Under the pieces are notes generated by a model. It was not told the DNA's origin, ran no database searches, and saw only the letters and a program-made list of their open reading frames with translations. 64,000 bases of DNA from TPA_inf: Saccharomyces. Its lineage: Eukaryota. A program made the position numbers and the translations under genes. Below, piece after piece: positions 5,494-52,230 of this stretch. Location of the stretch: positions 192,001-256,000 of the forward strand of contig BK006936.2 in NCBI GenBank assembly GCA_000146045.2, read 5' to 3'. Positions within the stretch are counted from its first letter, which is position 1. Every line of letters starts with the position of its first letter.

Positions 5494-5567
5494 GGTCTCT
5501 TGGCCCAGTTGGTTAAGGCACCGTGCTAATAACGCGGGGATCAGCGGTTCGATCCCGCTAGAGACCA
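5494..5567 (+). tRNA. tI(AAU): tRNA-Ile, anticodon AAU, 74 nt
   Basis: GGTCTCTTGGCCCAGTTGGTTAAGGCACCGTGCTAATAACGCGGGGATCAGCGGTTCGATCCCGCTAGAGACCA. The anticodon loop CTAATAA gives anticodon AAT. B-box GGTTCGATCC. A T-run terminator follows. Confidence 0.93.
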
Positions 5568-5628: not shown

Positions 5629-5699
5629 TGCGCAAGCCCGGAATCGAACCGGGGGCCCAACGATGGCAACGTTGGATTTTACCACTAAACCACTTGCGC
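5629..5699 (-). tRNA. tG(GCC): tRNA-Gly, anticodon GCC, 71 nt
   Basis: Reverse complement reads GCGCAAGTGGTTTAGTGGTAAAATCCAACGTTGCCATCGTTGGGCCCCCGGTTCGATTCCGGGCTTGCGCA. Anticodon loop TTGCCAT gives GCC. Confidence 0.93.
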
Positions 5700-35073: not shown

Positions 35074-35155
35074 AGGCAACTTGGCCGAGTGGTTAAGGCG
35101 AAAGATTAGAAATCTTTTGGGCTTTGCCCGCGCAGGTTCGAGTCCTGCAGTTGTC
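35074..35155 (+). tRNA. tS(AGA): tRNA-Ser, anticodon AGA, 82 nt with a long variable arm
   Basis: GGCAACTTGGCCGAGTGGTTAAGGCGAAAGATTAGAAATCTTTTGGGCTTTGCCCGCGCAGGTTCGAGTCCTGCAGTTGTCG. Anticodon loop TTAGAAA. B-box GGTTCGAGTCC. A T-run follows. Confidence 0.93.
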
Positions 35156-35635
35156 GTTATTTTTTGGACAGTAATAAGAGTACGTAAAGTCAATGGAATA
35201 CGTGGTAAAAGCATCACGTTTATGTTTTATTAAAAGATTGGCATAGAACTTGGCCTTCTTCGTAACGACTTATCACCCGTTAAAAGTATGCTATATGAGT
35301 TATATCGGCTGCAGTGTATTTCTTCCTGGCTCATTTAAAGCTAATGAAATGTACCTCTCGCTTCATTTTCTAAGGTAGTGTTTTGAAGGCGTATGTATGT
35401 AATGTCACCCGGACTTTTGTAAAGAAAAAATTTTGAGTTTATGTCTTTCCGAAAATTTTTACCGATGAGCATTGAAAAGTTGCATTATTAAATTTGGTAG
35501 CGTAAAAACCACCGATTAAACAGGTAGTGTAGGTTGTAAATTAAAGATCATATTCTTTCCTGTTTACATCCAGTTTTACGTTGTTGGCCGTATTGGTATA
35601 TTTCTAGTATCAGTTACACATATTTCATTGAAAGT

Positions 35636-45152: not shown

Positions 45153-45467
45153 TCATTGAGAAATTTTTTTTAAAACAACATCGATCTTATCTTGAGCAGT
45201 TTGGTGCTTATCAGTTCTAGTCCCAACACGAATATCAGTGTGTACTCTAACATATCCTTTCTCATGACCGTATTCATGGATTTCGCCAATCAAACCCATC
45301 ACATCATCCCAAGGCCCTTCAATTGTTGTTCCTGCACTGTGTAAAGTGCTCTTTAATGGGCTTTCTCTGATTTTTTTTTCAATGAGTGCAACAAAATCAG
45401 AAATACTAGCAGAGTCGGTGCCAATAGGGACCATACACACGTCCGCTAAACAAAAGATCTTGGGCAT
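45153..45467 (-). CDS. ECM15: Small conserved protein Ecm15 (104 aa), YBL001C
   Basis: 104-aa ORF starting [41 protein letters not shown]. It is the last gene before the centromere on the left arm. Confidence 0.8.
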
Positions 45468-46208
45468 TTTCTAAACTTGTAGTTTATGTGCTTTATAGTT
45501 AATGATCACGACGGCAATGACAAAAACTGAATATCTTGATCTCTCCTTTTGACGATGTCAGTGAATCCCGGTTAATGATATTCTGTTTTTCACGGGGTGG
45601 AAAAGAGGGGAGCTTGAATCATACTAAAAAAGGAATGTCAAAGAGCTATATAATTCGAATAAAAAGTAAAAGAAACGAAAGGTTTTATTAAAGGGTTTGG
45701 AGCTGTTTTCGGACTGAAAGCCAGTAACAAGCTTGTGTAGGAGTTTGTCTGAAAACCATCTTCATTTCAAATAAGAGAGCGAGTAATTTTTAAATAATTT
45801 CTTTTCTGAACTACTTAAATCGCTATGTACCTTGCGAAAATTATTCTTTAATAGTTTAACTAAAAGTAAAAAGTTAGAAATCATAAATAAAAAATCAAAG
45901 AGACAAATCTCGTTGCAAAAGCTTGAAAAATAGTGCTTTACCAACAGGTTGGCAAACCAGAATGCTAACAAAACTTAAAATCCCATTTCCCAAGAGGATC
46001 AATCAATCATATTTACCTTGATAGTATAGGATACAAGTGTCTGTGCAGGCCTCCGATAACATGTAAAGTAATAAAAGTAGGAGTACTTGCTTTCAGCAGA
46101 AAATGAAAAAAAGAACGTTCAAACAGACTGAAAATATAGCTATTCAACTGGCACCTACTAATATCAATAATAATAAATTAATCTTGAGCAAATTGATCCT
46201 ACATAAAT

Positions 46209-46324
46209 CATGTGACTTATTTATTTAATTATTATTAAGTAAAAAAGATTTTCTATTTAAATTTATTAATTAATTTTTTTTCTTAAATAATTATTTTATG
46301 TTTTTGTTTTCCGAAAAAGAAAAA
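46209..46324. other. CEN2: Point centromere CEN2. CDEI is at 46209..46216 (catgtgac, RC GTCACATG = RTCACRTG). CDEII is 46217..46298 (82 bp, >90% A+T). CDEIII is ~46299..46324 (tgtttttgttttccgaaaaagaaaaa with the invariant CCGAAA core)
   Basis: The tripartite structure, with canonical spacing and the CDEIII TGTTT(A/T)TGNTTTCCGAAA motif, is read directly from the sequence. It lies between YBL001C and YBR001C, as expected for chrII. Confidence 0.93.
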
Positions 46325-46940
46325 TATTTCAACAAGAAGTATCAATATATTTCTTGCAAAAAATTGTTCACCGAGAATTGACAAAAAAACCTTACGTCGG
46401 TGACGACGATATACAGATCCTATATTCTTCATGTATGTAATAGATTCCCATACCTTCTTCGCATTTAAGACACTAATAGAAATGAAAGCTTTCTATTAGT
46501 CATTCTTCCTATGCACTAGACCACGCAAAGGTGAACCGGCTTGGTACGAGAATTCTATCACACGGTAATGATAGTGTTCCCGATGTCAAGCAGTCTTATA
46601 CAGTACTACCCAAGAGCTTAAGAATAAGCAAGAAGATCTGGCAAGCTACAAGGTACTCATAACGATCTTCAAAGCGTAAGTTATGATCTTATGAAAATCA
46701 GACTTTTTTGTCTCAACAAACTCCTAGTTTGAAGATGTTACTGAAATGCCCTTCAAACACTTTTACTTGAAAATCATCGATTACTATTCTAACCTTCACA
46801 AATGAGCCTTTACACAACTTGATTAATAATAATATTTGACCTTACTCTAAATCGTCTCAAATATTACTGAGGCACAATCTCATGGTTATTGATAGAAAGA
46901 AGAATATAACATATATCTTATTTACATATGTTCGTCAATA

Positions 46941-49283
46941 TTATAGGTAATACAATTTTTTCTCAGAGGGTTTCAAACTATTGAAAAATGGCAATGGTGG
47001 ACTACAAGCAGCGAGAGCCCTTCTTGCATGATTATTCATATATTTCAATCCGAGCAAATAACTTGTGTTCACCCAACCAAAGCCTTCTGTAGCGACGCCC
47101 TTAAAATCAGCACCTTGATTACCATATTCCGCATCAACGCGATGCGGATCAGTCCCTCTTGTCACATCATATTTTTCTACCACCATTCCGTTATAATCAA
47201 CAAATGATTTTGTAATCATGTACAGCCACCTATAAGCCAATCTTGTAGCTACTTGTTGATAACCATATGCAGATAAACCTTTCCAGGCTAATATTTGGTG
47301 CGGCGCCCAACCAAAAGGATAATCCCATTGCCTGATCGGTCTATCAATAGAAATAGGACCTCTTGATTTTTCTGTGCATGCAACTAGTCCGCCGAGCATT
47401 TCTAACTGAGGAAGAGCTTTTTCTACTGTGATTTTTGCTTGCTCTTCAGTTGCAAGACCAGCCCACAAACTCCAAAAAGTCGTTGCAGACTCATAAGACG
47501 TTCTGCATTTCAGTTTCGTGTTATAATAGAAGAAAAACCCTGAATCTTCGTCCCACATATACTTATTAATCCTTGTTTTCCTCAGTTCAGCTAGCTCCTC
47601 CCAGTGTTCAGAATCGGTTACCGTTCCATCATTCTCATCTTTATATTCATTACCAAAATACTCCTTAATGACGAAAGCAATATCTTTCTCATATTTATAG
47701 AGCAAGGAGTTTAGATCAATTGTCGCTAAATATGCACATACACCTTCAAACCTATAAGTCGTGTCATGTCCTGACTCTCTCACGGCACGATCATGTAAAA
47801 AAAATGCATCCAGTTTGGGTTCTTTAATCATGCCTTCGTTATAAAGGTACCTAAGCTTTTCCAGAGTAACATTGTACTTTTCAGCATACGGTAATAATAT
47901 AGTATCAAAATGATCTGGTTCAGTTTCCGGAGGGATACCAATACCATCAGAATGATAACAAGACAGCCCTGTCAGAGAATCTAACCTAGGGCTCGACATC
48001 CACACCTCTTTATATTCTTTAATAGCAGCTCTGAACGCGCGTTTTAACAACTGAATAGCGTTTGGATTATTCTTACCTCCTATCTTTTCAAATACGAGCA
48101 GAGCCATATCGGTTAGGAATGGTGGCTGAGATCTGCAAAGATAATAACTCCTATTAGCATTCAAAATTTTACTATAGTGATCAATTTCGAATATAAAATG
48201 CTCCACCATACCTCTTGCAACATCAACCTTATTACTTTCTATGAGTCCCAGTGCCATTAAATATGAATCCCAGCCATACAATTCATTGAATCTACCGCCA
48301 GGTACCGCATAAGGATAACCAACTAGGGACCTTTCACCAGTAGATGGATTAACGTGTTCTTCCATAGCCAGGGCTAACAAACCCGGTGTATCATTTAATG
48401 ATTTAACATACTCTGCTGTAATATCTTTTGGTAAGTACTCCACTTCAAGTTTTAAGGACGGGTTCATTTGAGATGCCTGAATGTAAAATTCGTACTGCTC
48501 TGGGCAGTTATATGGAACATAAATTCTTGGATTTTTAGCGCCTGGCGTATCTATTTTTGAGTCTCTAGCAATTTCTGCAATATTATAAAGATCAACTCTT
48601 CTCGTTAAACTCGTCCAAAATTGAGTCGTTATCAATCTTGATAATCTATCAACAGGGTTTTCATTTATACGCGCCTCATCCAAAAATATTTGGTGTCGTC
48701 CGAAACTTTTTGCAATGGTTAGTTCCTGCAACAAGTTAGAAAGCATATATGTTCCCCTAACATTTACATGTTTGAAACCGTTGGAATTGGCCGTCCCGAC
48801 TTTAATAACTTTGGGCCCAGTGTCTTCTATGGTAATTTGGTGATTCTTGTCTGTGTCCTCACTAGCGAGCAGCTCATCTAAAGCGAGATCCACATTATCA
48901 ATATAAAATCTACGGTTACCTTGGCTGCTGAGGAAGCTGTCGTCTTCAGAACCCCTCCTTTTCAGGGTATAATCCTTCATTCCGTTTTTGAAGTCAGAAA
49001 CTTTATTGAAAACACTCATAGTTCTGGTTCTATTTAGTCTATGAATTTTTGACTGTTTTCTTGGATCTGTTATTGGTCCATAATAGACCTCTGCGTTGGA
49101 AAACGGGTCAAAATACTCATGCATAGAGGACAACCGCCGGTGATGTCTTCTACCACCTTGTTGCCCCTCTTCTTTCAACGGCCGCTGCTCTGAACCACTT
49201 GAAAGTGGCTTTATGTTATCTTCACCATCATTACCTTCGGATGGAGGATTTATTTCCGTTACTTTTGGTAAAAAATCTACCAT
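46941..49283 (-). CDS. NTH2: Neutral trehalase paralogue Nth2 (780 aa)
   Basis: 780-aa ORF starting MVDFLPKVTEINPPSEGNDGEDNIKP. Glycoside hydrolase family 37 trehalase domain (PGGRFNELYGWDSY). The N-terminus has the regulatory RRHHRRLSS / RRGSEDD PKA-type sites. Confidence 0.9.
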   Translation of the reverse strand: MVDFLPKVTEINPPSEGNDGEDNIKPLSSGSEQRPLKEEGQQGGRRHHRRLSSMHEYFDPFSNAEVYYGPITDPRKQSKIHRLNRTRTMSVFNKVSDFKNGMKDYTLKRRGSEDDSFLSSQGNRRFYIDNVDLALDELLASEDTDKNHQITIEDTGPKVIKVGTANSNGFKHVNVRGTYMLSNLLQELTIAKSFGRHQIFLDEARINENPVDRLSRLITTQFWTSLTRRVDLYNIAEIARDSKIDTPGAKNPRIYVPYNCPEQYEFYIQASQMNPSLKLEVEYLPKDITAEYVKSLNDTPGLLALAMEEHVNPSTGERSLVGYPYAVPGGRFNELYGWDSYLMALGLIESNKVDVARGMVEHFIFEIDHYSKILNANRSYYLCRSQPPFLTDMALLVFEKIGGKNNPNAIQLLKRAFRAAIKEYKEVWMSSPRLDSLTGLSCYHSDGIGIPPETEPDHFDTILLPYAEKYNVTLEKLRYLYNEGMIKEPKLDAFFLHDRAVRESGHDTTYRFEGVCAYLATIDLNSLLYKYEKDIAFVIKEYFGNEYKDENDGTVTDSEHWEELAELRKTRINKYMWDEDSGFFFYYNTKLKCRTSYESATTFWSLWAGLATEEQAKITVEKALPQLEMLGGLVACTEKSRGPISIDRPIRQWDYPFGWAPHQILAWKGLSAYGYQQVATRLAYRWLYMITKSFVDYNGMVVEKYDVTRGTDPHRVDAEYGNQGADFKGVATEGFGWVNTSYLLGLKYMNNHARRALAACSPPLPFFNSLKPSEKKLYYL

Positions 49284-49707: not shown

Positions 49708-50568
49708 TTAATTCAACTTTTTTTCTTTCAAATCGATGGGGTCCCCATTGGTTTCCTCGTCATAATCACCTTCCTCTAATCTGTACTCTTTGTTTAAAAA
49801 GGATTTGTGAAACGAAAATTTTAATAAAATCCATGCCATCCGTATAGGTCCAAACTCTGGCCATAAACAATCCAGCAATTCGATGCGTACGCCCTTACTC
49901 GATGCCTGCCATATCAAAAAGTCACTTAATCTGGAAACGCCACTTGTCCTAATCAATAAATCTAAAGGGGGTACCCCCGCCGTGTAGAGATGCGATTCTA
50001 ACGTGCTTTCGTCTATAGCGGCGCCCTTCTTATGTTGAACAATTGTTTCTTTCATGGCATGCAAGATTTCTTCCCTGCCTGTATATGGAAAGCAGATATT
50101 TAACGTGGCCCTTTTGTTGTTCTTTGTAGTTTCCACAGCAACCCGAACATCTTCTAATAGAGACTTATCCAACAAAGAGAGATCGCCGATAATTTTAATG
50201 CGTACCCCATACTTACAGGCCAGCTCTCCACGTTCTGTGATTTGTCGTATCCTTTCGCGCGCTAAAGTCATCAGTGATTCAACTTCCCGTGAGCTCCTCT
50301 TGAAATTTTCAATTGAAAAGGCAAACACGGTAGCCGTATCGACTCCTGCTTCATAACACAGTTCTAAGATTCTACTCATACTAACAAATCCTGCCTCGTG
50401 GCCCTCCTTTACGTCCATCTCTTTCTTTCTAGCGAATCTCCTGTTCCCATCCATGATGAACCCAACATGTCTAGGTACACAGTTAGATGCACGCAATGTG
50501 CGCGAAAAGATGTTTTTTGTCCACTTTAACACAAATGAATGACCAGGTATACCACTATCCGTTTCCAT
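49708..50568 (-). CDS. RER2: cis-Prenyltransferase (dehydrodolichyl diphosphate synthase) Rer2 (286 aa)
   Basis: Starts [48 protein letters not shown], the UPP-synthase family signature. 286 aa. Confidence 0.9.
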
Positions 50569-50808
50569 ACCGTCTTTTACCTGTGTTTACCCTATTTTTA
50601 CTGCTTAAGTTCTATTGAAACCTGTCATTATTACGAAAATTTTTTTTTTTTTCATTCTAAGCATTTTGTTGGCATCTTCGGAAAAAGCCCGAGCGAGGGT
50701 AACAGGGTTAGGGGATTAGAAGATTAAAGTAAGACACATTATAATCTATAGAGATTTTCTACAACACAAGAAGTGTGCCATTCAGTCCGAATTGAGTACA
50801 GTGGGACG

Positions 50809-52230
50809 ATGTTTCAAAGGTCTGGCGCTGCTCATCACATCAAATTGATTTCATCTCGAAGATGCCGCTTTAAATCCTCCTTTGCAGTTGCTTTAAACGC
50901 TGCCAGTAAGTTGGTAACTCCCAAGATTCTTTGGAATAATCCCATATCATTAGTCTCGAAGGAGATGAACACATTGGCCAAAAATATAGTTGCCCTCATC
51001 GGGTCTGGCCATCCGGTGCTAAACAAGGTTACTAGTTACTATTTTGAAACAGAAGGCAAAAAAGTACGTCCCTTGTTAGTGTTGTTGTTGTCAAGAGCAC
51101 TTTCTGAAATTCCCATGACAGAAAGAAATCACTTGAAAATTGACAAGTCGGATGTTCCTGAGGACCCAATTTACTCTAAACCTAGTCAAAATCAACTATT
51201 TCAACGTCCTGCAAGTAGCATATCCCCACTACATATTCTTCACGGTATTAAACCACTAAATCCCTTGACAAAAGGTCCTGAGCCTTTGCCAGAAGAAACT
51301 TTTGACAAACAAAGAGGGATTTTACCCAAACAGAGAAGATTAGCAGAGATTGTAGAGATGATACACACTGCGTCTTTACTTCATGATGACGTTATTGATC
51401 ATTCTGATACAAGAAGAGGAAGGCCAAGCGGAAATGCTGCCTTTACCAACAAGATGGCCGTTTTGGCGGGTGATTTTCTCTTAGGGAGAGCAACAGTGTC
51501 AATTTCAAGATTACACAACCCCGAAGTCGTAGAACTAATGTCTAATAGTATTGCGAATCTTGTCGAAGGTGAGTTCATGCAACTGAAAAATACTTCCATT
51601 GACGCGGATATCGATACCATCGAAAATGGCCATAAGCTACTTCCGGTTCCTTCTAAAAAGCTTGAAGTTAAAGAGCACGACTTTCGTGTTCCAAGCCGCC
51701 AACAGGGGCTGCAATTATCTCATGATCAGATTATAGAAACTGCATTTGAATACTACATACACAAGACCTATCTGAAGACTGCTGCTTTGATATCAAAATC
51801 TTGCAGATGTGCTGCTATATTATCTGGGGCATCACCTGCCGTTATCGACGAATGCTATGATTTCGGTAGAAATCTAGGTATATGTTTCCAACTCGTAGAT
51901 GATATGCTTGATTTTACTGTGTCTGGAAAAGATTTAGGGAAGCCATCCGGCGCGGATCTAAAATTAGGTATTGCTACTGCTCCAGTCTTGTTTGCATGGA
52001 AAGAAGACCCATCTTTAGGTCCACTAATTTCACGCAATTTTTCAGAGAGGGGTGATGTTGAAAAAACTATTGATTCTGTGAGACTCCATAATGGTATAGC
52101 GAAGACGAAAATACTAGCGGAGGAATATAGGGACAAGGCATTACAAAATCTACGGGATTCTCTTCCTGAATCTGATGCTCGTTCTGCCCTAGAGTTTTTA
52201 ACTAATAGTATACTAACAAGAAGAAAGTAA
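50809..52230 (+). CDS. COQ1: Mitochondrial hexaprenyl diphosphate synthase Coq1 (473 aa)
   Basis: ATG at 50809; the track start at 50773 is GTG. Two DDxxD polyprenyl synthase motifs (LLHDDVIDHSD and FQLVDDMLDF). N-terminal mitochondrial presequence MFQRSGAAHHIKLISSRRCRFKSS. Confidence 0.9.
   Translation: MFQRSGAAHHIKLISSRRCRFKSSFAVALNAASKLVTPKILWNNPISLVSKEMNTLAKNIVALIGSGHPVLNKVTSYYFETEGKKVRPLLVLLLSRALSEIPMTERNHLKIDKSDVPEDPIYSKPSQNQLFQRPASSISPLHILHGIKPLNPLTKGPEPLPEETFDKQRGILPKQRRLAEIVEMIHTASLLHDDVIDHSDTRRGRPSGNAAFTNKMAVLAGDFLLGRATVSISRLHNPEVVELMSNSIANLVEGEFMQLKNTSIDADIDTIENGHKLLPVPSKKLEVKEHDFRVPSRQQGLQLSHDQIIETAFEYYIHKTYLKTAALISKSCRCAAILSGASPAVIDECYDFGRNLGICFQLVDDMLDFTVSGKDLGKPSGADLKLGIATAPVLFAWKEDPSLGPLISRNFSERGDVEKTIDSVRLHNGIAKTKILAEEYRDKALQNLRDSLPESDARSALEFLTNSILTRRK

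Follow-up and report, generated by a model that had tools for sequence, protein, structure and literature searches.

The point centromere CEN2 in a 64-kb stretch of Saccharomyces cerevisiae chromosome II

We analysed a 64,000-nucleotide stretch of yeast DNA in full (the window; positions are counted from its first letter) and asked whether the gap between two of its genes, near position 46,200, holds a native point centromere and, if so, which one. A sequence-only reading had proposed that a complete centromere, CEN2, with CDEI, CDEII and CDEIII lies at 46209-46324 and that the window is the centromere region of chromosome II.

Identification of CEN2

An exact string search of the window showed that positions 46207-46324 are identical to the published Scer_CEN2 sequence at 118 of 118 letters (PMC3141009 Table S2). 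This sequence is listed as Chr2 238209..238326 with a length of 118 bp (Gordon, Byrne and Wolfe 2011, PMC3141009, Table S2). The match to the published CEN2 sequence thus bore out both the centromere and its three elements at the place proposed by the sequence-only reading. The proposed end of the element was exact, and its start needed correction, since the published annotation begins 2 bp earlier, at 46207. The element does not differ from S. cerevisiae CEN2 (S288C) of PMC3141009 over the 118 bp and has the same neighbours, ECM15 and NTH2; the Chr2 238209..238326 numbering is that of an older reference release. The three centromere elements and the two flanking genes are located as follows.

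46207..46214, + strand: CDEI, ATCATGTG as published, exact match to Scer_CEN2
46215..46298, + strand: CDEII, 84 bp, 94.0% A+T, the window's most AT-rich 84-mer
46299..46324, + strand: CDEIII, TGTTTTTGTTTTCCGAAAAAGAAAAA, 26 bp, CBF3 binding site predicted from sequence
45153..45467, - strand: ECM15 (YBL001C), left synteny anchor, outside the centromere; 104-aa ORF exactly matching NP_009554.1, Ecm15p of S288C
46941..49283, - strand: NTH2 (YBR001C), right synteny anchor, outside the centromere; 780-aa ORF exactly matching NP_009555.1, alpha,alpha-trehalase of S288C

We are practically certain that the element at 46207-46324 is the S288C reference form of CEN2, the S. cerevisiae chromosome II point centromere. 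The identification is supported by the match to the published sequence, by uniqueness in the window (the 64 kb contain a single CDEI-CDEII-CDEIII candidate), by synteny and by an architecture that is kept in four sister species; nothing substantive was found against it. We infer the protein binding and segregation function of the element or take them from the literature. CEN2 is already known and is among the best-characterised cis-acting DNA elements of eukaryotes, so its presence here brings no new biology.

Architecture of the element

Across 46200-46330 the + strand reads ...ATAA-ATCATGTG-ACTTATTT...ATTTTA-TGTTTTTGTTTTCCGAAAAAGAAAAA-TATT..., with CDEII abutting CDEI and CDEIII exactly.

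The CDEIII sequence TGTTTTTGTTTTCCGAAAAAGAAAAA agrees with the CDEIII consensus of S. cerevisiae, TGTTTWTGNTTTCCGAAANNNAAAAA, without a mismatch (26/26). It was the only match on both strands of the 64 kb even when three mismatches were allowed, and 100 dinucleotide-preserving shuffles yielded no match at the same tolerance (<=3 mismatches); the CDEIII with an invariant core described from the sequence is therefore both perfect and unique in the window. The TGT half-site (46299-46301), the central conserved G (46306) and the essential CCG half-site (46311-46313) are all in place, giving the TGT/CCG pseudo-palindrome and the CCGAA that characterise a point-centromere CDEIII of about 26 bp. The roles of TGT, G and CCG in CDEIII are described in PMC6077249, according to which CCG is the sole centromere triplet whose substitution is not tolerated. 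Across the Saccharomycetaceae the CCGAA core does not vary, and S. cerevisiae centromeres additionally all have G at positions 2 and 8 (PMC3141009); the CDEIII of the window has the core and both G residues.

CDEII contains only five G or C bases, and 48% of its bases lie in A or T runs of at least three. The window holds 27 84-mers with at least 90% A+T, all starting within 46203-46229, with the maximum for the one beginning at 46215, where CDEII itself begins; outside the CDEII region the richest 84-mer of the 64 kb reaches 84.5% A+T. The length of 84 bp falls inside the range of 78-86 bp given for S. cerevisiae CDEII (PMC3983907), and a high A+T content is likewise typical of CDEII, at 76-98% across species and >90% in S. 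cerevisiae (PMC3141009). The sequence-only reading had drawn the boundaries of CDEII at 46217-46298, which gives 82 bp and 95.1% A+T. Its figure of more than 90% A+T holds under either set of boundaries (94.0-95.1%), and its length of 82 bp becomes 84 bp under the published ones.

At 46294-46304 (+), across the CDEII/CDEIII junction, the sequence fits the ARS consensus (TTTTATGTTTT) at 11/11 positions, as would be expected if the element were primarily a replication origin (ARS) and not a centromere. Seven such 11/11 matches occur in the window, as expected in AT-rich DNA, and the one at 46294-46304 may be a by-product of AT-richness. An ARS as the primary explanation draws on this single match and accounts for none of the architecture: it leaves the perfect CDEIII, the E-box at a fixed 84-bp distance and the cross-species architecture unexplained, and the sequence is that of the published CEN2. 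We therefore regard an origin as a highly improbable primary identity for the element and retain the centromere.

CDEI contains an E-box, CATGTG/CACATG, at 46209-46214; the E-box core CATGTG is the binding site of Cbf1. The octamer is thus an 8-bp E-box Cbf1 site that adjoins CDEII at the end opposite CDEIII, as in a point centromere. The octamer consensus RTCACRTG is satisfied on the minus strand only, where 46209-46216 reads GTCACATG (reverse complement), and the + strand ATCATGTG deviates from it at two central bases. The earlier placement of an 8-bp CDEI on the minus strand was accurate as to the letters; by convention, the element is instead read on the CDEIII strand, as ATCATGTG at 46207-46214. 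The ATCATGTG variant also appears among the annotated CDEI sites of C. glabrata, A. gossypii and V. polyspora centromeres (PMC3141009).

The octamer RTCACRTG occurs seven times in the window against 6.05 expected, which is not significant by itself; its weight therefore comes only from its position beside CDEII and CDEIII. A chance rate is also what would be seen if a Cbf1 promoter-type E-box of ECM15 or NTH2 happened to lie beside an AT-rich tract and a CCGAA sequence, with no centromere function, and yeast intergenic DNA is generally AT-rich (the window mean is 61.7% A+T). However, such a juxtaposition would have to produce the 26/26 CDEIII, which did not recur in 100 shuffles even at three mismatches, and to set the sole 84-bp stretch of at least 90% A+T in 64 kb exactly between CDEI and CDEIII. 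It would also have to give exact identity to the published CEN2 and an architecture kept at the syntenic site in four other species, despite a spacer whose sequence is now no more alike between species than random AT-rich DNA. The CDEIII and CDEII statistics, together with the published match, effectively refute this explanation, to which we assign an extremely small probability, and CEN2 remains the reading followed below.

Genomic context

To the left of CEN2, 739 bp separate it from the end of the ECM15 start codon at 45467; to the right, the stop of NTH2 lies 616 bp away, at 46941. The flanks had been described as gene-free for about 700 bp on each side; they are gene-free, with a right flank nearer 600 bp. 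Mechanical ORF calling in the ECM15-NTH2 gap gave only ORFs of 51 and 69 aa, and no genes were called in the gap in 14 full-length related loci (L001-L011 and L013-L015). An Rfam scan of the gap returned only SNORD22 (19 bits against a gathering score of 50) and GNAS-AS1_3 (16 against 42), which were treated as chance matches because their scores are far below the gathering scores. A repeat search of the gap gave low-complexity AT-rich matches only.

The gene order UTP20-HTA2-HTB2-ECM15-centromere-NTH2-RER2-COQ1 is that of many chromosome-sized S. cerevisiae contigs, and the longest contig carrying the NTH2 protein measures 813,184 bp. Farther out from the centromere lie a divergent H2A/H2B pair and a 2493-aa UTP20-type ORF, with the histone and UTP20 assignments made from Pfam domains of orthologous genes. 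On the other side, the 286-aa ORF at 49708-50568 and the 485-aa ORF from 50773 are taken by us to be RER2 and COQ1, respectively, on the basis of chromosome II gene order. The Scer_CEN2 match, the identity of the flanking proteins and the shared gene order together show that the 64 kb of the window are pericentromeric DNA of S. cerevisiae chromosome II, in S288C-type sequence; the chromosomal placement given by the sequence-only reading was correct, as the neighbours match S288C NP_009554.1 and NP_009555.1 and the CEN2 identity is complete. On current S288C coordinates CEN2 would lie at about 238.2 kb, and the first letter of the window near chrII:192,001.

S. cerevisiae also has centromere-like regions (CLRs), with AT-rich stretches of about 90 bp (PMC3547844), so the element might conceivably be a non-canonical kinetochore site of this kind, or else the centromere of another species or chromosome, in place of the native CEN2. 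Like CEN2, CLRs contain about 90 bp of AT-rich DNA and bind kinetochore proteins, in their case under Cse4 overproduction (PMC3547844). Unlike CEN2, they depend on that overproduction for binding and yielded no clear match to either the CDEI or the CDEIII consensus (PMC3547844), whereas both motifs are present here, at a native centromere. A foreign centromere is at odds with flanking proteins that are identical to those of S288C chromosome II, and the orthologous centromeres of four sister species are clearly different in sequence. The exact CEN2 match and the identities of the flanking genes refute both possibilities, and we consider them vanishingly improbable beside the native CEN2.

Within S. 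cerevisiae, CEN2 can be compared with other centromeres. CEN4 is its whole-genome-duplication partner, both being derived from ancestral centromere 3 (PMC3141009 Table 1). CEN3 and CEN4 have the CDEI-CDEII-CDEIII plan and the factors (Cbf1, Cse4 nucleosome and CBF3) in common with CEN2. Their CDEI, unlike that of CEN2, is (A/G)TCAC(A/G)TG on the CDEIII strand. CEN4 is also shorter (112 bp) and has ACCGAA where CEN2 has TCCGAA.

Variation within S. cerevisiae

Ten contigs with identical Ecm15p, most of them chromosome-sized, showed the same gene order. The 1473-bp ECM15-NTH2 gap is 96.6-100% identical to the gaps of these ten contigs, with 100% identity to one chromosome-sized contig (L005). 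Among the 11 S. cerevisiae sequences, variable sites numbered 1 of 8 in CDEI, 14 of 84 in CDEII and 1 of 26 in CDEIII; outside CEN2, 5-7% of sites were variable in the intergenic flanks and 0.3-1% in coding DNA. CDEII is thus the most polymorphic segment within the species. The single changes in CDEI and CDEIII sit at degenerate positions of the consensus (R and N, respectively), the one in CDEIII at 46307. The TCATGTG core of CDEI was unchanged in all 11 sequences, and only position 1 (A/G) varied. This pattern fits protein-binding ends around a spacer that is constrained in composition and length.

One contig (L010; GCA_903819155.2, LR813501.2, 2145-2261) carried a markedly divergent CEN2, with nine differences in 117 bp as compared with 96.6% identity across the gap as a whole. 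The CDEI variant at position 1 (A to G) and the CDEIII variant at position 9 (T to G) both come from this contig and from no other.

Comparison with sister species

Orthologous loci were obtained via the Ecm15 proteins for S. paradoxus (L011), S. mikatae (L013), S. kudriavzevii (L014) and S. uvarum (L015). In all four species the NTH2-ECM15 gap holds one CDEI-CDEII-CDEIII element, oriented to its neighbours as in S. cerevisiae, so that both the position and the architecture are conserved in relatives. The S. uvarum element is the published Sbay_CEN2. The elements are as follows.

S. cerevisiae (window): CDEI ATCATGTG; CDEII 84 bp, 94.0% A+T; CDEIII TGTTTTTGTTTTCCGAAAAAGAAAAA; total 118 bp
S. 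paradoxus: CDEI GTCACATG; CDEII 85 bp, 90.6% A+T; CDEIII TGGTTTTGGTTTCCGAATATAAAAAT; total 119 bp
S. mikatae: CDEI GTCACATG; CDEII 84 bp, 90.5% A+T; CDEIII TGTTTTTGAGCTCCGAACTAAAATTT; total 118 bp
S. kudriavzevii: CDEI GTCACATG; CDEII 84 bp, 86.9% A+T; CDEIII AGTGTTTAGTTTCCGAATAGATTATA; total 118 bp
S. uvarum: CDEI GTCACATG; CDEII 86 bp, 89.5% A+T; CDEIII TGTATTTTGTTTCCGAAAGTTAATTA; total 120 bp

CEN2 of the window therefore shares with its sister-species counterparts the syntenic gap, the orientation, an 8-bp CDEI, the CDEII format (84-86 bp at 87-91% A+T in the sister species), the TCCGAA core and a total length of 118-120 bp. It differs from them in CDEI, which is GTCACATG in all four and ATCATGTG in S. 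cerevisiae, in the CDEIII positions around the core, and in CDEII, which can be aligned no better than shuffled AT-rich DNA: the CDEII identity between S. cerevisiae and S. paradoxus was 0.62, against 0.57 ± 0.03 (maximum 0.64) for composition-matched shuffles. Between species, conservation of CDEII thus extends to length and A+T content, and not to sequence.

When the intergenic region of S. cerevisiae and S. paradoxus was aligned in full together with its coding flanks and scored in 60-bp bins, identity was 90-97% for the coding parts and dropped to 30-63% in bins near the centromere. Global alignment of fixed 300-bp flanks between species was uninformative owing to indels. Centromeres and their flanks are reported to evolve rapidly (PMC3155921), with which the divergence of the gap and the polymorphism of CDEII agree. 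Two constrained protein-binding sites and a fast-evolving spacer held only in length and composition are the known signature of yeast point centromeres (PMC3155921).

Indels of about 60 bp and about 125 bp separate S. cerevisiae from S. paradoxus (window 45468-46940 against L011), in bins 45933-45992 and 46713-46772. The NTH2-ECM15 gap measures about 2.0 kb in S. mikatae (L013 991-3001), about 2.4 kb in S. kudriavzevii (L014 611-3001) and about 1.9 kb in S. uvarum (L015 1127-3001), and is shorter in S. cerevisiae, at 1.47 kb.

Orientation of CDEI

Reverse-complementing the CDEI core of S. cerevisiae CEN2 (46208-46215), TCATGTGA, gives exactly the core TCACATGA seen at the orthologous centromeres of the sister species S. 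paradoxus, S. mikatae, S. kudriavzevii and S. uvarum. The two forms are separated by two adjacent transitions, with central CA changed to TG, and possible intermediates between them are TCATATGA or TCACGTGA. All 11 S. cerevisiae sequences compared carried the flipped form TCATGTGA. The flip is most likely neutral, because Cbf1 is homodimeric and other yeasts have this variant as CDEI. If a Cbf1 dimer on the asymmetric CACATG were functionally asymmetric towards the kinetochore, the flip could affect the fidelity of CEN2; that it alters fidelity or reflects compensatory selection is, in our estimation, a long shot.

Predicted function

ChIP-seq signal of Cse4, Mif2, Ndc10 and Ndc80 is centred on CEN2 (PMC3547844, Figures 2A and S13), and all S. 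cerevisiae centromeres are stated to be functionally characterised (PMC3141009). The checks named by the sequence-only reading are thus already in print, and their outcomes go against the results that would have refuted it. In point centromeres, Cbf1 binds the 8-bp CDEI, a single Cse4 nucleosome occupies the 78-86-bp CDEII, and CBF3 is bound at the 26-bp CDEIII (PMC3983907). The Zn2Cys6 domains of Cep3 read the TGT/CCG pseudo-palindrome, Ctf13-Skp1 contacts the central conserved G, and Ndc10, which also contacts DNA non-specifically, recruits Scm3 and through it Cse4 (PMC6077249).

The following mechanism combines established knowledge of point centromeres with this literature, and at the present locus it is predicted from sequence. 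CDEIII would be recognised by CBF3 (a Cep3 dimer, Ctf13-Skp1 and an Ndc10 dimer), with the zinc-cluster domains of Cep3 expected to read the TGT/CCG pseudo-palindrome and Ctf13 to contact the central G. The chaperone Scm3, recruited by Ndc10, would then deposit one nucleosome containing Cse4-H4 on the CDEII of about 84 bp. A Cbf1 homodimer bound to the CDEI E-box would set the left boundary and the phase of the Cse4 nucleosome and improve the fidelity of segregation. On this single nucleosome the inner kinetochore (Mif2, CCAN) and subsequently the outer kinetochore (Ndc80 and others) would assemble, leading to spindle attachment.

Other features of the window

CEN2 is useful here only as an anchor, which places the window and helps in interpreting its remaining content. 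The ORF at 50773-52230 (+, 485 aa) has GTG as its mechanical start and is over-extended by the bacterial start-codon rule; as this is a yeast nuclear gene, translation presumably begins at the next ATG downstream in the same frame. The 90%-identity cluster of Nth2p (780 aa) also contains many Sla1p sequences (about 1220-1250 aa) and has Sla1p as its representative, which looks like a database clustering artefact unrelated to the window. Three tRNA genes were found, of which the first two form a closely spaced convergent pair.

5494-5567, + strand: tRNA-Ile (AAT)
5629-5699, - strand: tRNA-Gly (GCC)
35075-35156, + strand: tRNA-Ser (AGA)
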